Positions 3,001 through 59,389 of a stretch of 64,000 nucleotides of DNA are shown here, one piece after another (position 1 is the stretch's first letter; every line of letters starts with the position of its first letter). The position numbers and the translations under genes were made by a program. The notes beneath the pieces were generated by a model. The model was not told the origin of the DNA. It did no database searches and saw nothing but the letters and a program-made list of their open reading frames with translations. The stretch lies in IMG/VR virus record IMGVR_UViG_2875713109_000001. One strand, given 5' to 3'. Source of the stretch: a virus (taxonomy: Duplodnaviria; Heunggongvirae; Uroviricota; Caudoviricetes).

Positions 3001-6000
3001 TCTCTGCTTTTTCGGTACCGGTATCTGAATACTCCGACAATACCCGGCGACGCGCGGCCTCTTTGCGGTGGGAGTCGGAATCCATTGCGCTGGCTACGCG
3101 CCCGGCGGCAACGAAGTCATAAAGCATATCCTGTGCATGCTCATCTACGGTGTCATCACGTAGCGGAATGCGGGCGTATTGTTCTTTGGTAAACACGACT
3201 GCACGGTAATTTGAGTGCGGGATCGCGTTCATCCGCGCCGTGATAGTGGCTTCATCTGCCAGCTTAAGAGCATCGCGCATAACTGGAGTGCCATCAGTAC
3301 CAAGAACAGGTTTACCGTTCTCATCGAGCACCGGCACCTGGCGAATCTGATCGCCATCCATCAGCACATCAAGACCGACGAACAGGTAGTTACTGAATGC
3401 CTCTTCACTCAGGAATTCTTTTGCTTCGTAATACCAGTTTTCCAGCACTGATTTAGGCACTACATACGCAGTACGGGTGGAGCGACCGTTCTCATAGTTG
3501 AACGCCTCAAGCGCCAGCGCGGTCGTGGTTTTACCCAGCCCGGTGCCGAAGCCCAGGATGCCGCGCCCATCTTCGGACAGTCGGCGCACCTCGCTATTCT
3601 GGTAATCAAATGGCTGGCGCTTACCGCTTAATCCCTTCAACCCAAGCGGATCGCCAGAGTGTTCATACGGGATATTGCTATTGAACACATCGTTATATTT
3701 GGCAACCAGCTCATCGTAGCGATCGTGCGTCTTGATCCACTTATTGAACTGGTCCTCAAGCAGTGCCATCTGCTCGCGGTAGCCGTTCGCCGTCGCGCTA
3801 TCTTTGCCACCGATACGCGCACCATTGAGATACTTTTCCAGCTGTGCCGGGAACCCGGTCGCGTTTTCACCTGATTTACGGTCCCACTCGTAGCGGATCT
3901 CGCCTGTTTCTTTATCCTTGCGCTGGACGACACCGTATCGGTGCCCGACGAACAGACCATCACCACCGTGATAGGTGTCAGAAACCATTTCGTCGCCTTC
4001 CAGCTGCACTGACTGCACATAGCGCAGATCCGGATAGCCGTTTTCCTGCAAAAACTCCAGAATGACGGAGCGGTCGAACCAACGGCTATTGAGCTTAAAG
4101 CGGATATTCTCTGCTGGCGTCTTGATGCGCTTCTCTTCAATCGCTGCCAGCTGATTAAGGACGTTGTTTTTTACTGGACCGTCGGGGAGTGTGGCAAGGA
4201 ATTCCTGTTTTGGAGCCACTATCTCGTTAATGTCGCCGCTGGTGGCGCGGGCAAACGGAACAATCCCGCCATACGGTGAAACCGCAATGCCAGGGGTGCT
4301 GGCCAATAAATTAAGCAACTCGTCATCACTGGCTGGCAGTTCGCCGGTAAACGCAAGGCGGAAATCATCGAGCTGGATTGGATCGCGAGTGAGATCACTG
4401 TAGAGATAACGCAGGGTGTCCTGATAGCTGGTGGAGTCATAACTGGCGCTGGAATCATGCGTAACCAGTTTTCCTGTCAGCTCGTCAGAAATAGTGCCAT
4501 CCAGCTTAATTGCACCACGGAAAGCAAACCAGGCGCGCGCACCGCTCCCCGATAATTTCGCTATCGGACCGCGGCCGGGGTTACCAAAACGGTCAATCTC
4601 TGCCTGCAAACGGGATACCAGAGAAAGGCGCTGCTGTTCGATTTGTTCAGCACTATGCCCGGCGGCCTTCATGTCCTGATATTCAATTAACATCCGGCCA
4701 ATCATCGCCCCGCGATACAAGCGTTCACGGTATTTTTCAGGCTGGCTGTTAATCCAGTCCACCAGCTGCACCATATCGTCGCTGATTGATGTGGTGTACT
4801 TATCGCGGACATTTGCCATCTGGGTAAATGTCATACCGAGACGGCCTTCTGTTGTAGTCAGGTTACGCTGAAGAGCCTCCCAGCTATCCGCGCCATAACT
4901 GGCAACATCAATCTTCAGCTCCTTCCCGGCATCAGCTTCAATCCAGCGACCACCAGCATATTTTTGCCATACGCCATTAATCAGGCGCATTTCCCCTTCA
5001 TCAACAACATCTGCGGTCGGTGACGGTTCAGCCATATCGAGCAAAGACCAGTCGATACGACTTTCGAAACGATGAATCAGCTTCGCTTTAAGAGCCTGGT
5101 TATCAATCTGCCCGTCGGCACGAACCTCAATACGCCCCTGGAATCCCTTCTCCTGAGTGCCATGAACAAACCGGCGGCCGTCCTTTTCAAACCACTTGCC
5201 AGAAATAAACGTTGGCCAAAGCACATTTGCCGATTCAAGAGTGCCTTCATCCACCAGGGGGATTTTCTCAGCCATCTCCGCCGGATGTTTGCGCATCAGC
5301 ACCACGTCAACGACCGTACTGGTCCCGTTTGCGTCAAAAGTACCGGTAGGCAAGCGGTGGGCACCAAGAAATTCAGCTTTCCGTGATAGGCGCAGGCGTA
5401 ACCGCTTCATGTTTGAACCTGAAACAATGGACGGCGGCACAATCACGCACATGAATCCGCCTGGCTTTATCTTGTCCAGCATGCGGAGCATGAAGTAAGA
5501 ACCCATGTCCGTTTCTTCTGCGTAAGGCTTATCGATGTTGCGTGTGTTATCACGACCACCGAACGGAACGTTACCCACAACATGGTCGAATGAATCGTTA
5601 GGCGTGCTTACAGCCAGTTGTTCGAACGGGGAAATCTGTACGCTGTCTTCCGGATGTAACAGCTGGTTTATACGACCGGAAACACTGCTGATCTCAGTCG
5701 CGGTCATCACCGTGCCAACCGGTTTTGTCTCATTAAAAACGCCGGTGCCCGCCGATGGTTCCAGAGTGTTACCTACGTCCGCGCCGTAGAGCTTCATGAT
5801 CTCCCAGACACCTTCAGCTATCGGCTTTGGTGTGTAATATTCGGAGACGGACCCGCCAATGCCGCCTTCACCGGTGTACCCAGCCAGGATCTGGCGCTGT
5901 TCATCTGTCAGTGTCGCGCCGTCCACCAGCGAATTAAGCAAATCTATCGCCTTCTGATTCGCCTCACGGCGCAGTCGGTCATAGCTTTTGCCTTCCACCT

Positions 6001-54135: not shown

Positions 54136-56396
54136 AAGAGCTGTGCTATGGATCTGTTTGCAGTGGAATTGAAGCCGCGAGTATTGCCTGGGAACCGTTG
54201 GGTATGCGTCCGGCGTGGTTTGCTGAAATCGAGCCTTTTCCATCTGCCGTTCTTGCGCACCGCTGGCCCCATGTCGCCAACCTTGGCGACATGACAAAAC
54301 TTGCCAAAAAAGTCCTGGCTGGGGAAATCGAATCCCCTGATGTGCTCGTCGGGGGAACACCTTGTCAGGCATTCAGTATCGCTGGATTACGTGGTGGGCT
54401 TGATGATGAGCGTGGCGCGCTAACTTTAAAGTATGTGGAGCTTGCAAATGCAATTGACGACAAACGGGCTGAGTCATTTCTCAAACCAGCCGTTATCGTC
54501 TGGGAAAATGTCCCAGGAGTCTTGTCATCGGCAGATAACGCCTTCGGATGTTTCCTTGCCGGATTGGCTGGAGAAGATGCGCCATTTGAACCAGGTGATC
54601 GACCTGAATCAGGAAAAAGTAACGCGTTCTGGCGGTGGGATGGCAAAACCGGTTGCCATGCTCCAAAGTGGCCGCAGTGTGGTTGTATTTATGGACCGCA
54701 GCGAAAGGTGGCCTGGAGAATCCTTGATGCCCAATACTTCGGAGTGGCACAACGACGCCGACGCGTGTTTGTTGTCGCAAGTGCTCGAACAGACCTCGAT
54801 CCCGCAACGGTACTTTTTGAGTTCGAAGGCGTGCGCCGGGATATTGCGCCGAGCCGAAAAAAGAAGGAAATCGCTTCCGCCATTATTGCAAATGGCGCTG
54901 CAATCAGTGGCGAAAGCCTAAATCCATGCCTACATGCTGACATGCCACCCGGTATGAAATCGACGAAAGCCGTAAACGCTTTCAGGATGGCAGCATTTGG
55001 GGAATATATTGACGATGAAACCGCATCGACAGTAAAGGCAAGAGATTTTAAAGATGCCACTGACCTTGCCGTTTTTAGCAGCACAGGAGCAGCTTTTTGG
55101 TCAGAAGGGCATGGTACATTGCGGGCACGTGAGCAAGAAAGCCATGAGCATCTTGTTACATTGGCTTTTCCTGAGCGTATGAGCGGTACACAACATGCTG
55201 CAACTAAGAATACTTCACCATCTCTAATGGCTAAAAATCCAACAGCTGTTTGCTATGAAGTAAGAAACGCAGAAGTAGCTGTCCGCCGTCTTACCCCTGT
55301 CGAATGTGAAAGGCTGCAAGGTTTTCCTGATGGGCATACGTTGATCCCGACGGAAAAGCGTAAAAAAGTTAGTTCAGATGAACTGGCATATCTTCGCAAT
55401 CACTATCCAGATTTAAGCGAAGAAGAGGCCGTGATGCTTGCAGCTGACGGACCGCGTTACAAAGCGATCGGCAATAGTATGGCAATACCAGTAATGCGCT
55501 GGATTGGCGATCGGATTACTAAGGCCGTATGTCGGCAGAAAGAAGGAAGTGAAACAAAAGAGCGAAAAGTTAAACCAGCGGCAGAATTCGAACGGTCCAT
55601 ATTCAAATGGGCTGGTGGAAAATTTGGTGTTCTGGAACAAATCTTTCGCTATTTGCCAGAAGGGAAGCGCCTGATTGAACCTTTCGTTGGTGGCGGAGCT
55701 GTCTTCATGAATGCCGGATACCAGGAAAATCTGCTAAATGATGTGAATGCTGACCTGATTAACTTTTACAAGACTCTGCAACGCGAGGCGCATTCACTTA
55801 TCACTCTGGCACATCGTTTTTTCCTGGACTACAACACCCAGGAGGGATACTTGGCAGTACGGAATGCGTTTAACAAACAAGTCTATGATGATTTACATCG
55901 CGCAGCGGCGTTTTTGTTCCTGAACCGACATTGTTTTAACGGATTGACGCGTTACAACCAGGCCGGTGAGTTCAATGTCGGTTATGGGAAGTATAAAACT
56001 CCGTATTTCCCATTACAGGAGATGGAAGCCTTCCTCGGTGCGGAAGGGCGGTCTGAGTTTGTATGCGGTGATTTTGCAGCGGTGATTGAAGCTGCCGGAG
56101 AAGGAGATGTCATCTTTTGCGATCCGCCGTATGAACCGCTCCCCAATACAGAGGGGTTCACGAACTATTCCGGTCATGACTTTAAGTTTGAAGAGCAAAA
56201 ACGCCTGGTGTCTCTGTTGACGGATGCTCATCGTCGAGGTGCAAAGGTTCTCATTACTAACAGTGGCGCGCCAAACATCAGAGAGCTTTATCATGACAGT
56301 GGCTTCAGAGTGGAACCTCTTTTTGCCAGACGTTCTGTGTCTTGTAAGGGGGACACTCGAGGTGTAGCTCATGACGTTTTGGGTATATTGCTCTAA
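54132..56396 (+). CDS. dmt: bifunctional DNA methyltransferase: N-terminal C5-cytosine (Dcm-like) + C-terminal N6-adenine (Dam-like)
   Basis: 754 aa; [11 protein letters not shown] and VIVWENVPG (C5 MTase); [13 protein letters not shown]...[12 protein letters not shown] and FCDPPYEP (Dam-like); GTG start with SD GGAGG. Confidence 0.9.
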
Positions 56397-56403
56397 TAAA
56401 TTA
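56387..56403 (+). promoter_or_regulatory. C1 operator-like site ATTGCTCTAATAAATTA overlapping the dmt stop codon
   Basis: 16/17 match; encodes the last codons of dmt. Confidence 0.5.
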
Positions 56404-56577
56404 ATTAGTGTAATATCGCCTCAATGAATCGTGATTTATAGAGCGATTTAGCTGTTAGCCGCGACAGGCGCGGCGGTAAGCATGGCTGGGCCTAGTCCTC
56501 CCAGACAAACCACCGAGTTGCCAGGTTGACCATGCGCCTAAGTGGCAACGCCGAAGTGCGTTACGAGCTTCCAGTTT

Positions 56578-56603
56578 GCCCATCTTCGGGTGGGCGTTTT
56601 TTT
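56578..56603 (+). terminator. intrinsic terminator GCCCA-tcttcggg-TGGGC-GTTTTTTT
   Basis: GC stem followed by T7 run. Confidence 0.6.
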
Positions 56604-57069
56604 CAGGGTTTTCGTCATGGTTAGCGACTTTGCGGCGGTTTAGAAACTGACCATTAAAGTAAATGCAAACGATGATCTGATGATGGTAGCGGCCTAAGAA
56701 ACCAGATGCCACGGGGTATGAGTCGTCCCCCGTCAAAAAAATCGACCGCAGAGTGTCCCCGTCTGTGTATTAGGGAACGGGGAGGCACAACAGGTAAGGG
56801 CGCTGGTGTGATTAACCAGATGAACGAGAAGGGGCCATCTGTTGGTCAGCGTCCTTTCCTGTTGCGTTTTCTTTTCAGCGTAACAGCGGTGCTTAACAGC
56901 ACTTTGGGTACAGTTCCACGAATTTACGGGTATATCCCGTCATGCTGAAGGCGCTAATCACGCTGGAAGCCAGGGTTGTGCATCCCCTGTTACCGAATTG
57001 CAGCCAGGGCGCGGTGCGCCGAAAAGCATACGGAGGTGGAAGCCCTCGCCGGAGACGTACCCGGCAAGT

Positions 57070-57145
57070 GATGGTGTAGCTCAGCGGTTAGAGCGGTTGA
57101 CTGTTAATCAACGGGTCGATGGTTCAAATCCATCCACCATCGCCA
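57070..57145 (+). tRNA. tRNA-Asn (anticodon GTT)
   Basis: Full cloverleaf read by hand: acceptor GATGGTG/CACCATC, anticodon loop CTGTTAA, T-arm GATGG-TTCAAAT-CCATC, encoded CCA. Confidence 0.9.
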
Positions 57146-57147
57146 AT

Positions 57148-57223
57148 GCCGGTTTAGCTCAGTTGGTAGAGCGCCTGCCTTGTAAGCAGGATGTCAGCGG
57201 TTCGAGTCCGTTAATCGGCACCA
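57148..57223 (+). tRNA. tRNA-Thr (anticodon TGT)
   Basis: Acceptor GCCGGTT/AATCGGC, D-arm GCTCAGTTGGTAGAGC, anticodon loop CTTGTAA, T-loop TTCGAGT, encoded CCA. Confidence 0.9.
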
Positions 57224-57227
57224 GCAC

Positions 57228-57318
57228 AACAGGTAAGGGTATTTTGCGACGCCGGAGATCGCCGAGCTTGGCAGAGGGTTCGAATCCCTACGAAGTACCC
57301 TTACCGTTGTGATGAAGT
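57228..57318 (+). ncRNA. tRNA-like hairpin element A
   Basis: 17-bp inverted repeat CACAACAGGTAAGGGTA / TACCCTTACCGTTGTG enclosing AGGGTTCGAATCCCT (canonical T-arm). Confidence 0.35.
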
Positions 57319-57444
57319 GCAGCTCTTTGAAGCAACCAGAAGATAAGCATCTGGCTTCACAACATAAACCGCAGGAACGACCAATAAACGGTAGTCCGTA
57401 TGGAGAACACCCCGTTGAGGAAGAGGCCTGGCCGGAACCGTAAC

Positions 57445-57557
57445 CGGCACTACAACGTTGAGAACACTGGCGTAACGGGGTCATATCCCAATCTACGAAT
57501 AAATGTTGCGTTGCAGCGTGACAACCAGTGTTCTCAACATTGTGGTGAATGCACAGG
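57445..57557 (+). ncRNA. tRNA-like hairpin element B
   Basis: 18-bp inverted repeat CAACGTTGAGAACACTGG / CCAGTGTTCTCAACATTG enclosing ACGGGGTCATATCCCAATCTAC. Confidence 0.35.
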
Positions 57558-57722
57558 CTGATGTGCCGCAACTACAGTAGTGCGCGCTTTGCGGGGCTTG
57601 CTACAACCCTGTGTCGGAGTTCAGCACCGACCATCACAGTTTGATTCTCTGGCATGAGCATAACGCTGAAATAAGTCCAGTCTGGTGCGGCCCGATCACC
57701 CGCCGTTAGCTCCACGAAACGG

Positions 57723-57815
57723 AGCACGTAACAGGTAAGAGCATTCTCCTGTAACGGGTTCATATCCCAATCTACAGGTCCACCAAGAATGCTCTTTCCG
57801 TTGCGGTGAATGCGG
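57723..57815 (+). ncRNA. tRNA-like hairpin element C
   Basis: Inverted repeat AAGAGCATTCT / AGAATGCTCTT enclosing ACGGGTTCATATCCCAATCTAC; 5' ACAGGTAAG and 3' CCGTTGCGGTGAATGC shared with A/B. Confidence 0.35.
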
Positions 57816-57955
57816 CTAAGCGCACGCGGGGAAATGGTTATATCAGTCCATTCATTTCTCCTTGTTTCCCCGTCCACGGTGGATAACCAGCCAAAGGACA
57901 CCGGGAGGCACCCGGCACCGCAGCTTTTTTATTCGTTAAATAATGGAGTGAGAGG

Positions 57956-58192
57956 ATGCAGAACAATCCGAACAAATGTCGAACGCTATGGGTGCGGTTA
58001 TATATTTATGCCGTCCTCTGTTTGATTGTGTCACTGGTTCTGTATGTTTGGCTTTTGCCAAATATGATCTCATCTAACAGCACAATACTTGTATTGTTGG
58101 GAGTCCTTCTCGCGCTCATTTACCCGGCTTTCGCAGTAGTCTTTTTTCGTGAAAAAACCAGGAAATTAATTAATGAAAAAAACGTTGATTAG
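57956..58192 (+). CDS. small two-helix membrane protein coupled to SPFH lipoprotein
   Basis: 78 aa; ATG with SD GGAGTGAGAGG; overlaps downstream start. Confidence 0.45.
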   Translation: MQNNPNKCRTLWVRLYIYAVLCLIVSLVLYVWLLPNMISSNSTILVLLGVLLALIYPAFAVVFFREKTRKLINEKNVD

Positions 58193-59000
58193 TGCAGCGA
58201 TTATTTTGGGTTCTTTATGTCTGACCGGATGCGATCGGGTAGAGCCAGGTAACGTAGGGATCAAAGTAAATAAGCTGGGGGATGATAAAGGTATCGGTGA
58301 AGTAGTTGGCGTTGGTCGCTACTGGACAGGCTTGAATACTGAAGTTTATATCTTCCCGACCTTTAAGCAAATGAAGACATACGATGAGCCGTTCAGCTTC
58401 CAGATGAGCGACGGAACAACCATTGGTTACCACATCGGCGTAGCCTACAAGGTTGATCCAGCAAAAGTCACAACGGTATTTCAGACCTATCGCAAAGGTG
58501 TAGATGATATTACTGATACCGATCTACGCCAGAAGGTTGCAGATGCTCTGAACCGGTTAGCCAGCAAAATGACCACCGACAAATTTATCGACGGTGGCAA
58601 ATCTGAATTGCTTGATGCAGCCCTTAAAGACATTCAGGAAGAAATGACGCCAATCGGCATTCAGGTGATGAGCCTCTCTTATGTAGGTAAGCCAGAATAC
58701 CCGCCAACAGTTATTGACAGTATTAACGCCAAAGTCACGGCAAACCAAAAAACCCTGCAACGCGAGCAAGAGGTCAAACAACGTGAAGCAGAGGCCAACA
58801 TGCTGCGCGCGGAAGCTGCCGGACAGGCTGATGCTATTCGCACAAAAGCCCAGGCCGAAGCTGATGCCATTCGTTTACGTGGTGAAGCTCTGCGCCAGAA
58901 CCCCGGTGTTATGGAGTTGGAAGCGATCAACAAATGGAACGGTACATTACCGCAGTATATGACCAGTAATACCGCTGTTCCGTTTGTTCCGGTGAAATAA
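58173..59000 (+). CDS. SPFH/band-7 (prohibitin-like) lipoprotein
   Basis: Lipobox LCLTGC; SPFH-like core; C-terminal coiled coil QREQEVKQREAEANMLRAEAAGQADAIR. Confidence 0.7.
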   Translation: MKKTLISAAIILGSLCLTGCDRVEPGNVGIKVNKLGDDKGIGEVVGVGRYWTGLNTEVYIFPTFKQMKTYDEPFSFQMSDGTTIGYHIGVAYKVDPAKVTTVFQTYRKGVDDITDTDLRQKVADALNRLASKMTTDKFIDGGKSELLDAALKDIQEEMTPIGIQVMSLSYVGKPEYPPTVIDSINAKVTANQKTLQREQEVKQREAEANMLRAEAAGQADAIRTKAQAEADAIRLRGEALRQNPGVMELEAINKWNGTLPQYMTSNTAVPFVPVK

Positions 59001-59027
59001 AAGCGTAAGCAAAATTGGCAGTAATCC

Positions 59028-59103
59028 GGCCCTTTAGCTCAGTGGTTAGAGCTGGCGACTCATAATCGCACGGTCACCGGTTCAAGTCCGGTAGGGGCCA
59101 CCA
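59028..59103 (+). tRNA. tRNA-Ile2-like (anticodon CAT, lysidine-type)
   Basis: Near-identical in layout to remembered E. coli ileX: GGCCCTTTAGCTCAGTGGTTAGAGC...CTCATAA...GGTTCAAGTCC...AGGGGCCACCA. Confidence 0.85.
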
Positions 59104-59389
59104 TATTTGGTTGTAACACGGCGTCTGGCACATGCGTCGTTAGCGGTCTGGTGACGTTAAAAGGGGGGAACCTTGCCCCTAGCTCAGGCAACGAACCAGG
59201 TAGCCGGAATGTGCAAGCCACCGTTTGTTGTTTCTCGGGTAAAGGGATTCACCATCCTGGCGATTCGGTGTGACAGCCGGGAAGAGTCCGGCGCATTAAT
59301 CCTGATTTTCTGGTGATGACTCATATCGTTAGGAGTGATTTGAGTATGCCGATTATATCTGACATTCAGCACGCCTGGGTGGAGTGCTA

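Follow-up and report, generated by a model that had tools for sequence, protein, structure and literature searches.

An SPFH lipoprotein gene and its overlapping hairpin partner gene in a P1-like phage-plasmid: a common, strongly conserved phage module

Why does a phage carry a gene for a protein of the SPFH (band-7) superfamily, and why does a gene for a very small membrane protein overlap its start? The cages built by SPFH proteins are structurally understood, their functions in bacteria are poorly defined, and SPFH genes of phages have repeatedly been noted as unexplained. We consider these questions for positions 57956-59000 of a 64,000-nucleotide stretch of caudoviricete DNA (IMG/VR record IMGVR_UViG_2875713109_000001), hereafter the window. 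The two genes found there are a common and strongly conserved phage module, in which a protein of known fold (SPFH) has an unusual anchor and a partner from a family not recognised before. We propose, with a probability of roughly 0.55, that they act as one module, which sets up a scaffold of phage-encoded SPFH protein at the periplasmic surface of the inner membrane and most likely serves to fortify or partition the membrane of the infected cell.

The gene pair and its products

The elements of the pair, all on the + strand, are as follows.

57956..58192, +, gene for a 78-residue hairpin membrane protein with two transmembrane (TM) segments, the SPFH partner (from the list of open reading frames, ORFs; ATG start, GGAG/GAGAGG before it)
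58173..59000, +, gene for a 275-residue SPFH/band-7 lipoprotein (ORF list; ATG start, AGGA before it)
58173..58192, +, overlap of the two reading frames, 20 nucleotides
58173..58235, +, lipoprotein signal peptide with lipobox L-T-G-C, Cys20 (58230-58232) and Asp at +2 (from the sequence)
58236..58796, +, SPFH alpha/beta domain, residues 22-208 (Pfam envelope; strands and helices E20-E175 of the AlphaFold2 model)
58704..58934, +, long helix (178-242) and short helix (244-254), the "wall and roof" element of SPFH cages (AlphaFold2, Foldseek)

The first-pass annotation had described this locus as a band-7/SPFH lipoprotein coupled to an overlapping two-helix membrane protein. Both ORFs are indeed present, with the coordinates given there, and since their frames overlap by 20 nucleotides, translational coupling of the two genes is implied; in relatives, the corresponding overlap is of 1 or 4 nucleotides (ATGA). 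The domain search found the SPFH hit on which the name of the larger protein hinged: residues 22-208 match Pfam Band_7/SPFH (PF01145) with E=9.7e-31 (107.6 bits, for a cut-off of 23.6), and among the PHROGs it matches the "lipoprotein" family phrog_200 (E=2e-113). The protein starts with a classical lipoprotein signal peptide, MKKTLISAAIILGSLCLTG, continued by CDRVE from the lipobox Cys on. Its layout, MKK-TLISAAIILGSLC-LTG-C20, conforms to the rules for the n-region, the h-region and the lipobox ([LVI][ASTVI][GAS]C), and the lipobox Cys is invariant in two family alignments.

On which side of which membrane would such a protein sit? Asp at +2 is the Lol-avoidance signal, i.e., the signal for retention in the inner membrane, in Enterobacterales. 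The window protein reads C-D-R, and about 99 of 120 close enterobacterial homologues have C-D at +1/+2. Six homologues (P0113 and P0116-P0120, ~74% identical, on contigs of ~110 kb) have the lipobox Cys replaced by Tyr (…IIGYDRVEPG…); these variants are widespread and cannot receive a lipid, and their N-terminal helix, left uncleaved, would serve as the anchor. In a few singletons of near-identical sequence, this Cys is Trp, Tyr or Phe. In natural fusions of the two proteins, described below, the order is an N-in hairpin, a cytoplasmic linker and an outward helix, which leaves the SPFH domain outside. The hairpin itself is predicted to be N-in/C-in with a periplasmic loop, and the annotators of phage Pylas label their hairpin homologue "2 TMDs N in C in". 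We infer that the SPFH domain is attached to the inner membrane and faces the periplasm, because Asp +2, the Cys-to-Tyr variants, the topology of the fusions and the positive-inside charges of the hairpin all point in this direction.

In the AlphaFold2 model, computed from a 43-sequence alignment (pLDDT 85), the SPFH alpha/beta domain is followed by one helix of 65 residues (178-242) and a shorter one (244-254), after which the C-terminal tail is flexible and of low confidence. Over the full length, Foldseek aligns the model at probability 1.00 with HflK, prohibitin, erlin, stomatin, flotillin and QmcA (HflK 7vhq_E, 5e-14; HflK, prohibitin, erlin and stomatin at ~1e-13; QmcA, 8z5g, 3.8e-8), and also with many unnamed band-7 proteins of phages and giant viruses. 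This predicted architecture suggests that the protein assembles into a ring or cage.

The same results raise a first alternative, namely that the pair mimics HflK/HflC: a periplasmic SPFH assembly would bind or enclose the FtsH protease of the host, or intercalate into the host's HflKC. FtsH-dependent proteolysis of lambda-type CII/CIII, of membrane proteins or of LpxC would thereby change, with the effect of tuning the choice between lysis and lysogeny or of stabilising phage proteins. HflK is among the best matches (it is also the best sequence match in the PDB, phmmer E=2e-4), the predicted orientation is that of the periplasm-facing HflK/C (PMC2636767), and the idea has been raised in phage genome papers (PMC4936722, PMC8540360). 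On the other hand, identity is only ~18% and the protein scores far under the NCBIfam equivalog cut-offs (HflC, 24.7 bits vs 134.4; HflK, 23.3 bits vs 159.4). There is one SPFH gene instead of an hflK-hflC pair. Moreover, since prohibitin and erlin score as well as HflK, the HflK match reflects the general architecture of the cages. We consider this alternative unlikely, a judgement to which the phylogenetic spread of the module, described below, also contributes.

In the 78-residue protein, two hydrophobic segments (~13-34 and ~43-64) flank an uncharged loop, PNMISSNS, and both termini are basic. The protein matches the PHROG family phrog_1130 ("membrane protein", E=6e-16), whose traits it shares, i.e., a length of 55-82 residues, two TMs, a loop P-x-[LM]-[IVL]-S and a Gly about 10 residues further on. 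Three residues are invariant in the family alignment: P35, S39 and G49. A search by word index with the protein returned close relatives only (at least ~69% identity); distant ones were found through fusions and through a hidden Markov model (HMM) built solely from the N-termini of 16 distant fused homologues. This model finds the small ORF at E=1.1e-12, while the runner-up among the 727 ORFs of the window stands at E=0.3. Against a 93%-identical plasmid, the ratio of nonsynonymous to synonymous differences (pN/pS) in the ORF is ~0.19, a value drawn from 8 substitutions only. Because of the HMM match and of this ratio, the ORF at 57956..58192 is a real gene and no chance ORF. Genome pipelines often leave it out: in RefSeq P1-like plasmids, PGAP annotates the SPFH gene only, and NZ_CP033848.1 has no coding sequence at the position of the hairpin.

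The pair had been likened to the cellular NfeD-SPFH pairs, and the likeness holds for the arrangement of the genes only. Taken literally, the pair would be a phage copy of an NfeD-SPFH operon, in which the small protein would be a minimal NfeD nucleating or stabilising a stomatin-type cage. The gene order (small membrane protein first), the common strand and the overlapping frames are the same, and the structural matches include QmcA from the QmcA-YbbJ complex. The domain content speaks otherwise. The 78-residue protein has no Pfam match at E<=0.1, none of 18 members of the hairpin family matches NfeD (PF01957), and the family profile finds nothing in Pfam, nor anything at E<=10 in the PDB, which contains the QmcA-YbbJ complex (8z5g). 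With only ~26 residues (~12+14) outside the membrane, there is no room for an OB fold. Furthermore, NfeD accompanies only the cytoplasm-facing SPFH1/2/5 proteins, and no such partner is known for periplasm-facing ones (PMC2636767), while the SPFH domain is here predicted to be exported. With nothing in Pfam or the PDB for its family, homology of the hairpin to NfeD was rejected, and we consider the copied operon very improbable. The hairpin is a separate family, a previously unrecognised partner of SPFH proteins.

A small protein of this kind also recalls a permeabiliser. The hairpin could be an effector of the class II holin or pinholin type, which the SPFH cage would restrain or time. Its 55-82 residues, two TMs, N-in/C-in topology and basic C-terminal tail would suit this role, as would the 1:1 coupling or fusion expected of an effector and its restrainer; there is also a weak, non-significant match to a PHROG holin family (phrog_565, E=0.099). 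The constraint on the hairpin is, however, confined to the loop motif and does not extend to the helices, and the genomic neighbours reported below are not those of a lysis gene. We regard this caged effector as improbable.

Relatives, fusions and selection

How constant is the association between the two genes? Among the close loci, 83 of 85 have an overlapping two-TM ORF upstream, and one remaining locus starts only 210 nucleotides upstream of the match. A search of 1.84 billion cluster representatives returned 2875 SPFH relatives (222 at E<1e-30), most of them lipoproteins of ~280-290 residues. Among the top 150 representatives, 19 (~13%) have a long N-terminal extension (total length 322-392 residues), and in 18 of these, i.e., all except P0247, a hairpin with the same loop motif, a basic linker, the lipobox helix and the SPFH domain follow each other in one frame. 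Many lack an internal Met and hence are true fusions. At the level of species, a hairpin-HMM ORF lies upstream of the SPFH gene in 15 of 17 genome loci (13 directly, two at a distance of ~770 bp); these loci span Salmonella, Yersinia, Kluyvera, Pantoea, Dyella, Luteibacter and Sutterella, down to ~44% identity. The HMM also detects the hairpin ORF in lytic phages, immediately 5' of the SPFH gene in the N4-like Pylas and phiEaP8 and two genes upstream in the Bruynoghevirus DL54. Of 110 further viral contigs, it hits 86. Ten misses of the HMM were inspected, and all ten have a two-TM ORF of 55-82 residues with a similar loop abutting the SPFH start. Thus, the hairpin accompanies the SPFH protein in nearly all relatives, with identities as low as ~40%, and every locus examined has a single SPFH gene.

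Some loci depart from the usual layout. In chromosomal loci of Shigella flexneri and E. coli, the hairpin ORF (~4990-5230) and the SPFH gene (6001) are separated by a gap of ~770 bp with minus-strand ORFs; an insertion may have split the pair there, since a transposase gene lies just upstream. In some lytic phages, extra tiny membrane-protein genes stand between or beside the hairpin and SPFH genes, namely gp56 and gp55 in Pseudomonas phage DL54 (2783-4274) and a 51-residue ORF with one TM in the locus L110 (669-1068), so the module may sometimes include a third small component. A contig labelled "MAG: archaeon isolate PL23a_bin.95" encodes the hairpin ORF and the N-terminal 81 residues of the SPFH lipoprotein (62% identical); it is probably a mis-binned bacterial or phage contig.

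The family is very common. By tblastn, it occurs in 392 phage records, both temperate and strictly lytic; the carriers include the strictly lytic Schitoviridae and Bruynoghevirus, myoviruses of ~145 kb, phiCbK-like phages, Lak megaphages and one crAss-like phage. Among complete E. coli genomes, 460 of 5426 (~8.5%) carry the SPFH gene. In 192 of these 460, the full P1-type cassette is found on plasmids of ~90-100 kb, and the remaining carriers have chromosomal prophage versions of ~87% DNA identity.

Divergence is very unequal along the module. Between copies of the P1, P2 and Stx types, identity is 94.5-98% for the mature SPFH protein, 32-42% for the signal peptide and 25-46% for the hairpin. 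For the mature SPFH part of the P1-type copy and of P88, synonymous divergence (dS) is 1.0 and nonsynonymous divergence (dN) 0.008, i.e., a dN/dS of 0.008; for the two remaining pairs dN/dS is 0.03 and 0.06, with dS ranging from 0.4 to 1.0 over the comparisons. Synonymous change comes close to saturation in two of the three; the high identity therefore means that the mature SPFH domain is under very strong purifying selection, of a housekeeping grade. Recent horizontal transfer, the other possible cause of 94-98% identity, was ruled out by the dS of ~1. Recombination has left a trace of another kind: between the window (57956-59000) and NZ_CP027309.1 (326-1370), the proportion of synonymous differences (pS) is ~0.10 in the hairpin gene and 0.34 in the SPFH gene, and this difference within one pair of plasmids points to a recombination breakpoint inside the cassette.

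Genomic setting and expression

Where does the module stand, and when would it be expressed? The surroundings of the pair contain the following elements.

57931..59018, +, exchangeable cassette of 1088 bp (blastn against canonical P1, AF234172)
57070..57223, +, tRNA-Asn(GTT) 57070-57145 and tRNA-Thr(TGT) 57148-57223, upstream in the same transcription unit
59028..59103, +, tRNA with anticodon CAT, right border of the cassette, 28 nucleotides 3' of the SPFH gene (ARAGORN: Met; P1: trnI)
56387..56414, C1 operator pair (Oban a/b), overlapping the ban promoters (operator matches; 99% identity to the annotated P1 region)
59384..60754, +, ban (replicative helicase of the DnaB type), next gene of the operon; its P1-annotated start is 59390
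57194..57901, -, plp (57194-57571) and upl (maximal ORF 57572-57901), conserved in P1 and outside the module

Punavirus P1 isolates and P1-like phage-plasmids match the region at 99.9% identity. The first-pass annotation was right to see a phage genome here and to place the pair between tRNA loci (Asn and Thr upstream, the CAT tRNA downstream); the element is a phage-plasmid of the P1 type rather than an integrated prophage. Compared with canonical P1 by blastn, the identity (~99%) stops at 57930 and resumes at 59019. In between, the 1088 bp of the cassette stand in place of 716 bp of P1 with tciA (TerB-like), tciB and tciC, and the operon reads C1 operator Oban, dicF-like region, two tRNAs, cassette, trnI and ban. 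The tciABC genes have been described as one of eight variable regions of P1-like elements, "lost" in nearly half of them (PMC9603915). In PLSDB, 189 plasmids carry the hairpin-SPFH cassette and 191 tciABC (each at a coverage of at least 80%), i.e., the SPFH cassette is found in about half of the P1-like plasmids. Because they share the same slot and occur in 189 and 191 plasmids, the two cassettes look like alternative alleles rather than a presence/absence polymorphism.

Several features of the neighbourhood lie outside the module. The tRNA at 59028-59103 is called Met(CAT) by ARAGORN, while the identical P1 gene is annotated trnI (tRNA-Ile2, ileX-like) and PGAP also gives tRNA-Ile; its CAT anticodon is presumably read after lysidine modification. 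The upl frame is open for 109 residues from a GTG start and spans the 109 positions of phrog_7444 from end to end (E=9e-76). The P1 annotation retains only the last 63 residues, and RefSeq P1-like plasmids annotate neither upl nor plp, the latter overlapping tRNA-Thr on the opposite strand. On the + strand, 57802-57922 resembles the Salmonella small RNA STnc100 of Rfam below threshold (37.8 bits for a gathering cut-off of 47, E=6e-6, model positions 31-147 of 206); this stretch runs antisense to upl, over the 5' part of that gene, and stops just short of the cassette.

The bivalent C1 operator Oban at 56387-56414 is the only annotated upstream promoter site of the cassette's operon. A sigma-70 promoter scan of 56300-59500 returned no site, where 3.1 were expected by chance, and thus none between dmt and ban; therefore no cassette-internal promoter can be claimed. 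Elsewhere in the window, five further C1-operator-like sites, all on the + strand (6039, 9889, 36033, 37695 and 52865), differ by 1-3 mismatches from ATTGCTCTAATAAATTT. Together with the two of Oban, this makes 7 sites for 0.33 expected, which fits the dispersed immunity regulon of P1.

In all contexts examined, early or middle genes run in the same direction as the pair, and replication or recombination genes adjoin it. In the P2-like phage P88 (gp11/gp12) and in the UTI89 prophage, it lies in the early (Pe) operon between cox and replication gene A, with a 4-nucleotide hairpin/SPFH overlap, and the hairpin gene also overlaps the preceding early gene. In lambdoid Stx2 phages, it stands on the leftward side, from cI to xis/int, with the small ORF unannotated. 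It is found 3' of exonuclease and UvsX-like recombinase genes in SSU5-like contigs, 5' of primase or helicase genes in Sutterella and Dyella elements, after the RNA polymerase II subunits and before dUTPase and replication genes in the N4-like Pylas, and in the early region of Bruynoghevirus. From these positions, we infer an early timing of expression.

This distribution bears on the alternatives already raised. In none of the phages examined was the pair associated with lysis genes; it is always early or middle, by replication genes, which argues against the caged effector. P1 and N4-like phages, for their part, have separate lysis cassettes. For the HflK/C mimic, the leftward early region of the Stx lambdoid phages is the home of cIII-type functions and would be a suitable place. 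On the other hand, P1-like, P2-like, N4-like and Bruynoghevirus phages conserve the module to the same degree; the last two are strictly lytic, and none of these four groups is known to have a CII-type switch.

It also bears on a further alternative, according to which the pair serves lysogenic conversion or defence, either as a phage exclusion system expressed in the lysogen or as a virulence lipoprotein exposed at the surface or on outer membrane vesicles. The variable accessory slot of P1-like elements (PMC9603915) and the frequency in E. coli, on P1-like plasmids as well as in chromosomal prophages, are what one would expect of such a gene. There is even a possible precedent in PM0222, an HflK/C-like SPFH protein from a prophage island of Pasteurella multocida, which is reported to be a vesicle-associated TLR1/2 agonist and a virulence factor (PMC9872710), and which we set beside the window protein by its description only. 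Against this stand the lack of any detected promoter of its own together with the location in repressor-controlled early operons of three phage types, the wide occurrence in strictly lytic phages, which have no lysogen, the absence of a match to PADLOC models, and Asp +2 with an inner-membrane hairpin partner, which speak against surface exposure. This alternative seems to us rather less probable than the HflK/C mimic. Because of the repressor-controlled early operons and the presence in strictly lytic phages, the pair is more likely to serve the lytic cycle than to act in lysogenic conversion.

A periplasmic scaffold and its counterparts in known systems

We return to the proposed periplasmic scaffold. 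The 78-residue protein would enter the membrane as a hairpin of two helices, its ends on the cytoplasmic side and its short conserved loop, P-x-[LM]-[IV]-S-[SA], on the periplasmic side. The SPFH protein would be exported, lipidated at Cys20 and held in the inner membrane by Asp +2; its SPFH domain and ~65-residue helix would then oligomerise to a ring or cage, as in HflK/C, prohibitin and erlin. The hairpin would supply the membrane-spanning part that the lipoprotein lacks, so that the pair would be a split form of the three-TM fused proteins of its relatives. The module would be co-transcribed with early genes, here those of the C1-repressed ban operon, and hence be made after infection or induction, not in the quiescent lysogen. 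The inner membrane of the infected cell could in this way be partitioned or fortified, so that the DNA of superinfecting phages is excluded or pore-forming and other envelope insults are resisted.

This physiological role is speculative. It would fit the alternation with the TerB-type tciABC, because ter operons have been linked to phage inhibition (PMC9603915), and exclusion during lytic growth is possible. In its most extended form, the proposal makes the pair a new class of early membrane-fortifying or exclusion cage of phages, directed against superinfecting DNA, pore-forming toxins and membrane-targeting abortive-infection effectors, and kept in balanced polymorphism with tciABC in P1-like elements; we hold this tentatively, as clearly less probable than the scaffold itself.

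Several observations weigh against the scaffold or its role. Concerning the anchor, Arg at +3 could weaken the inner-membrane retention by Asp +2, and distant relatives mostly have Ser or Thr at +2. A strong intrinsic terminator, a hairpin followed by a T-run at the end of the dicF-like region (56574-56606), separates Pban from the tRNAs, the cassette and ban; expression of the SPFH pair thus needs read-through or processing, which we assume from the P1 literature. The hairpin and the signal peptide diverge far faster (25-46%) than the SPFH domain, so that a tight contact specific to the hairpin and the SPFH protein would be conjectural. That tciABC is equally frequent is no direct indication of a shared function. 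A PADLOC-DB v2 scan of three local proteins gave no defence match, the hairpin reaching only a non-significant E=0.023. Finally, among the phage genome papers that note SPFH genes (PMC8540360, PMC13239085, PMC4936722, PMC1524935), two state that the role of these proteins is unclear (PMC8540360, PMC13239085), and in the literature on phage SPFH proteins we found no functional study and no account of the conserved hairpin partner.

The two natural alleles of P1 at a single locus offer a compact and genetically tractable system for the study of an SPFH scaffold on the periplasmic side. If exclusion or membrane protection is indeed its role, the pair would matter for competition between phages and for the composition of phage-therapy cocktails; several therapeutic phages of Pseudomonas, Klebsiella and Erwinia carry it.

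How does the pair compare with systems already known? The closest in architecture are HflK and HflC, the FtsH modulators of E. coli (SPFH3), which share the SPFH domain and the long helix over a full-length structural alignment. Like the phage protein, for which the side is predicted, they face the periplasm from an inner-membrane anchor and have no NfeD partner. They differ in having an N-terminal TM helix and in forming a chromosomal K/C gene pair, where the phage has a lipid anchor, a separate two-TM hairpin and one SPFH gene, and sequence identity is as low as reported above.

The NfeD-SPFH operons (YbbJ-QmcA of E. coli, YuaF-FloT of B. subtilis, NfeD-FloA of S. aureus) likewise have a small membrane-protein gene directly upstream and coupled, and there as here the partner is probably located in the membrane together with the cage. 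Their partner has the OB fold of NfeD (PF01957) and their cages are cytoplasmic, whereas the phage partner has no OB fold and the phage SPFH protein is predicted to be exported and lipidated. The phage hairpin family has its own signature, P...S.........G, in the periplasmic turn, unlike NfeD.

The cages of prohibitin, erlin and the prohibitin-like SPFH4 proteins are among the best structural matches (8rrh, 9o9z, 9vvg), and the SPFH homologue of Pylas is annotated "Prohibitin family". Prohibitin and erlin face away from the cytosol, toward the intermembrane space and the lumen of the endoplasmic reticulum, respectively. Bacterial SPFH4 proteins have been proposed to face the periplasm (PMC2636767). 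Unlike in the phage pair, neither a lipoprotein anchor nor a hairpin partner is described for these proteins.

The tciA-tciB-tciC genes of P1, encoding a TerB-like and two small membrane proteins, form an envelope-associated accessory module in the identical slot of the ban operon and at about equal frequency. TerB and SPFH are unrelated in sequence and fold; a functional equivalence of the two modules is suggested only by their shared position. Imm and Sp of phage T4 offer an analogy of function only: superinfection exclusion is there ensured by early membrane proteins, a small two-TM protein and a membrane-anchored periplasmic one, which have no homology to the SPFH pair and whose genes, imm and sp, are neither adjacent nor coupled.

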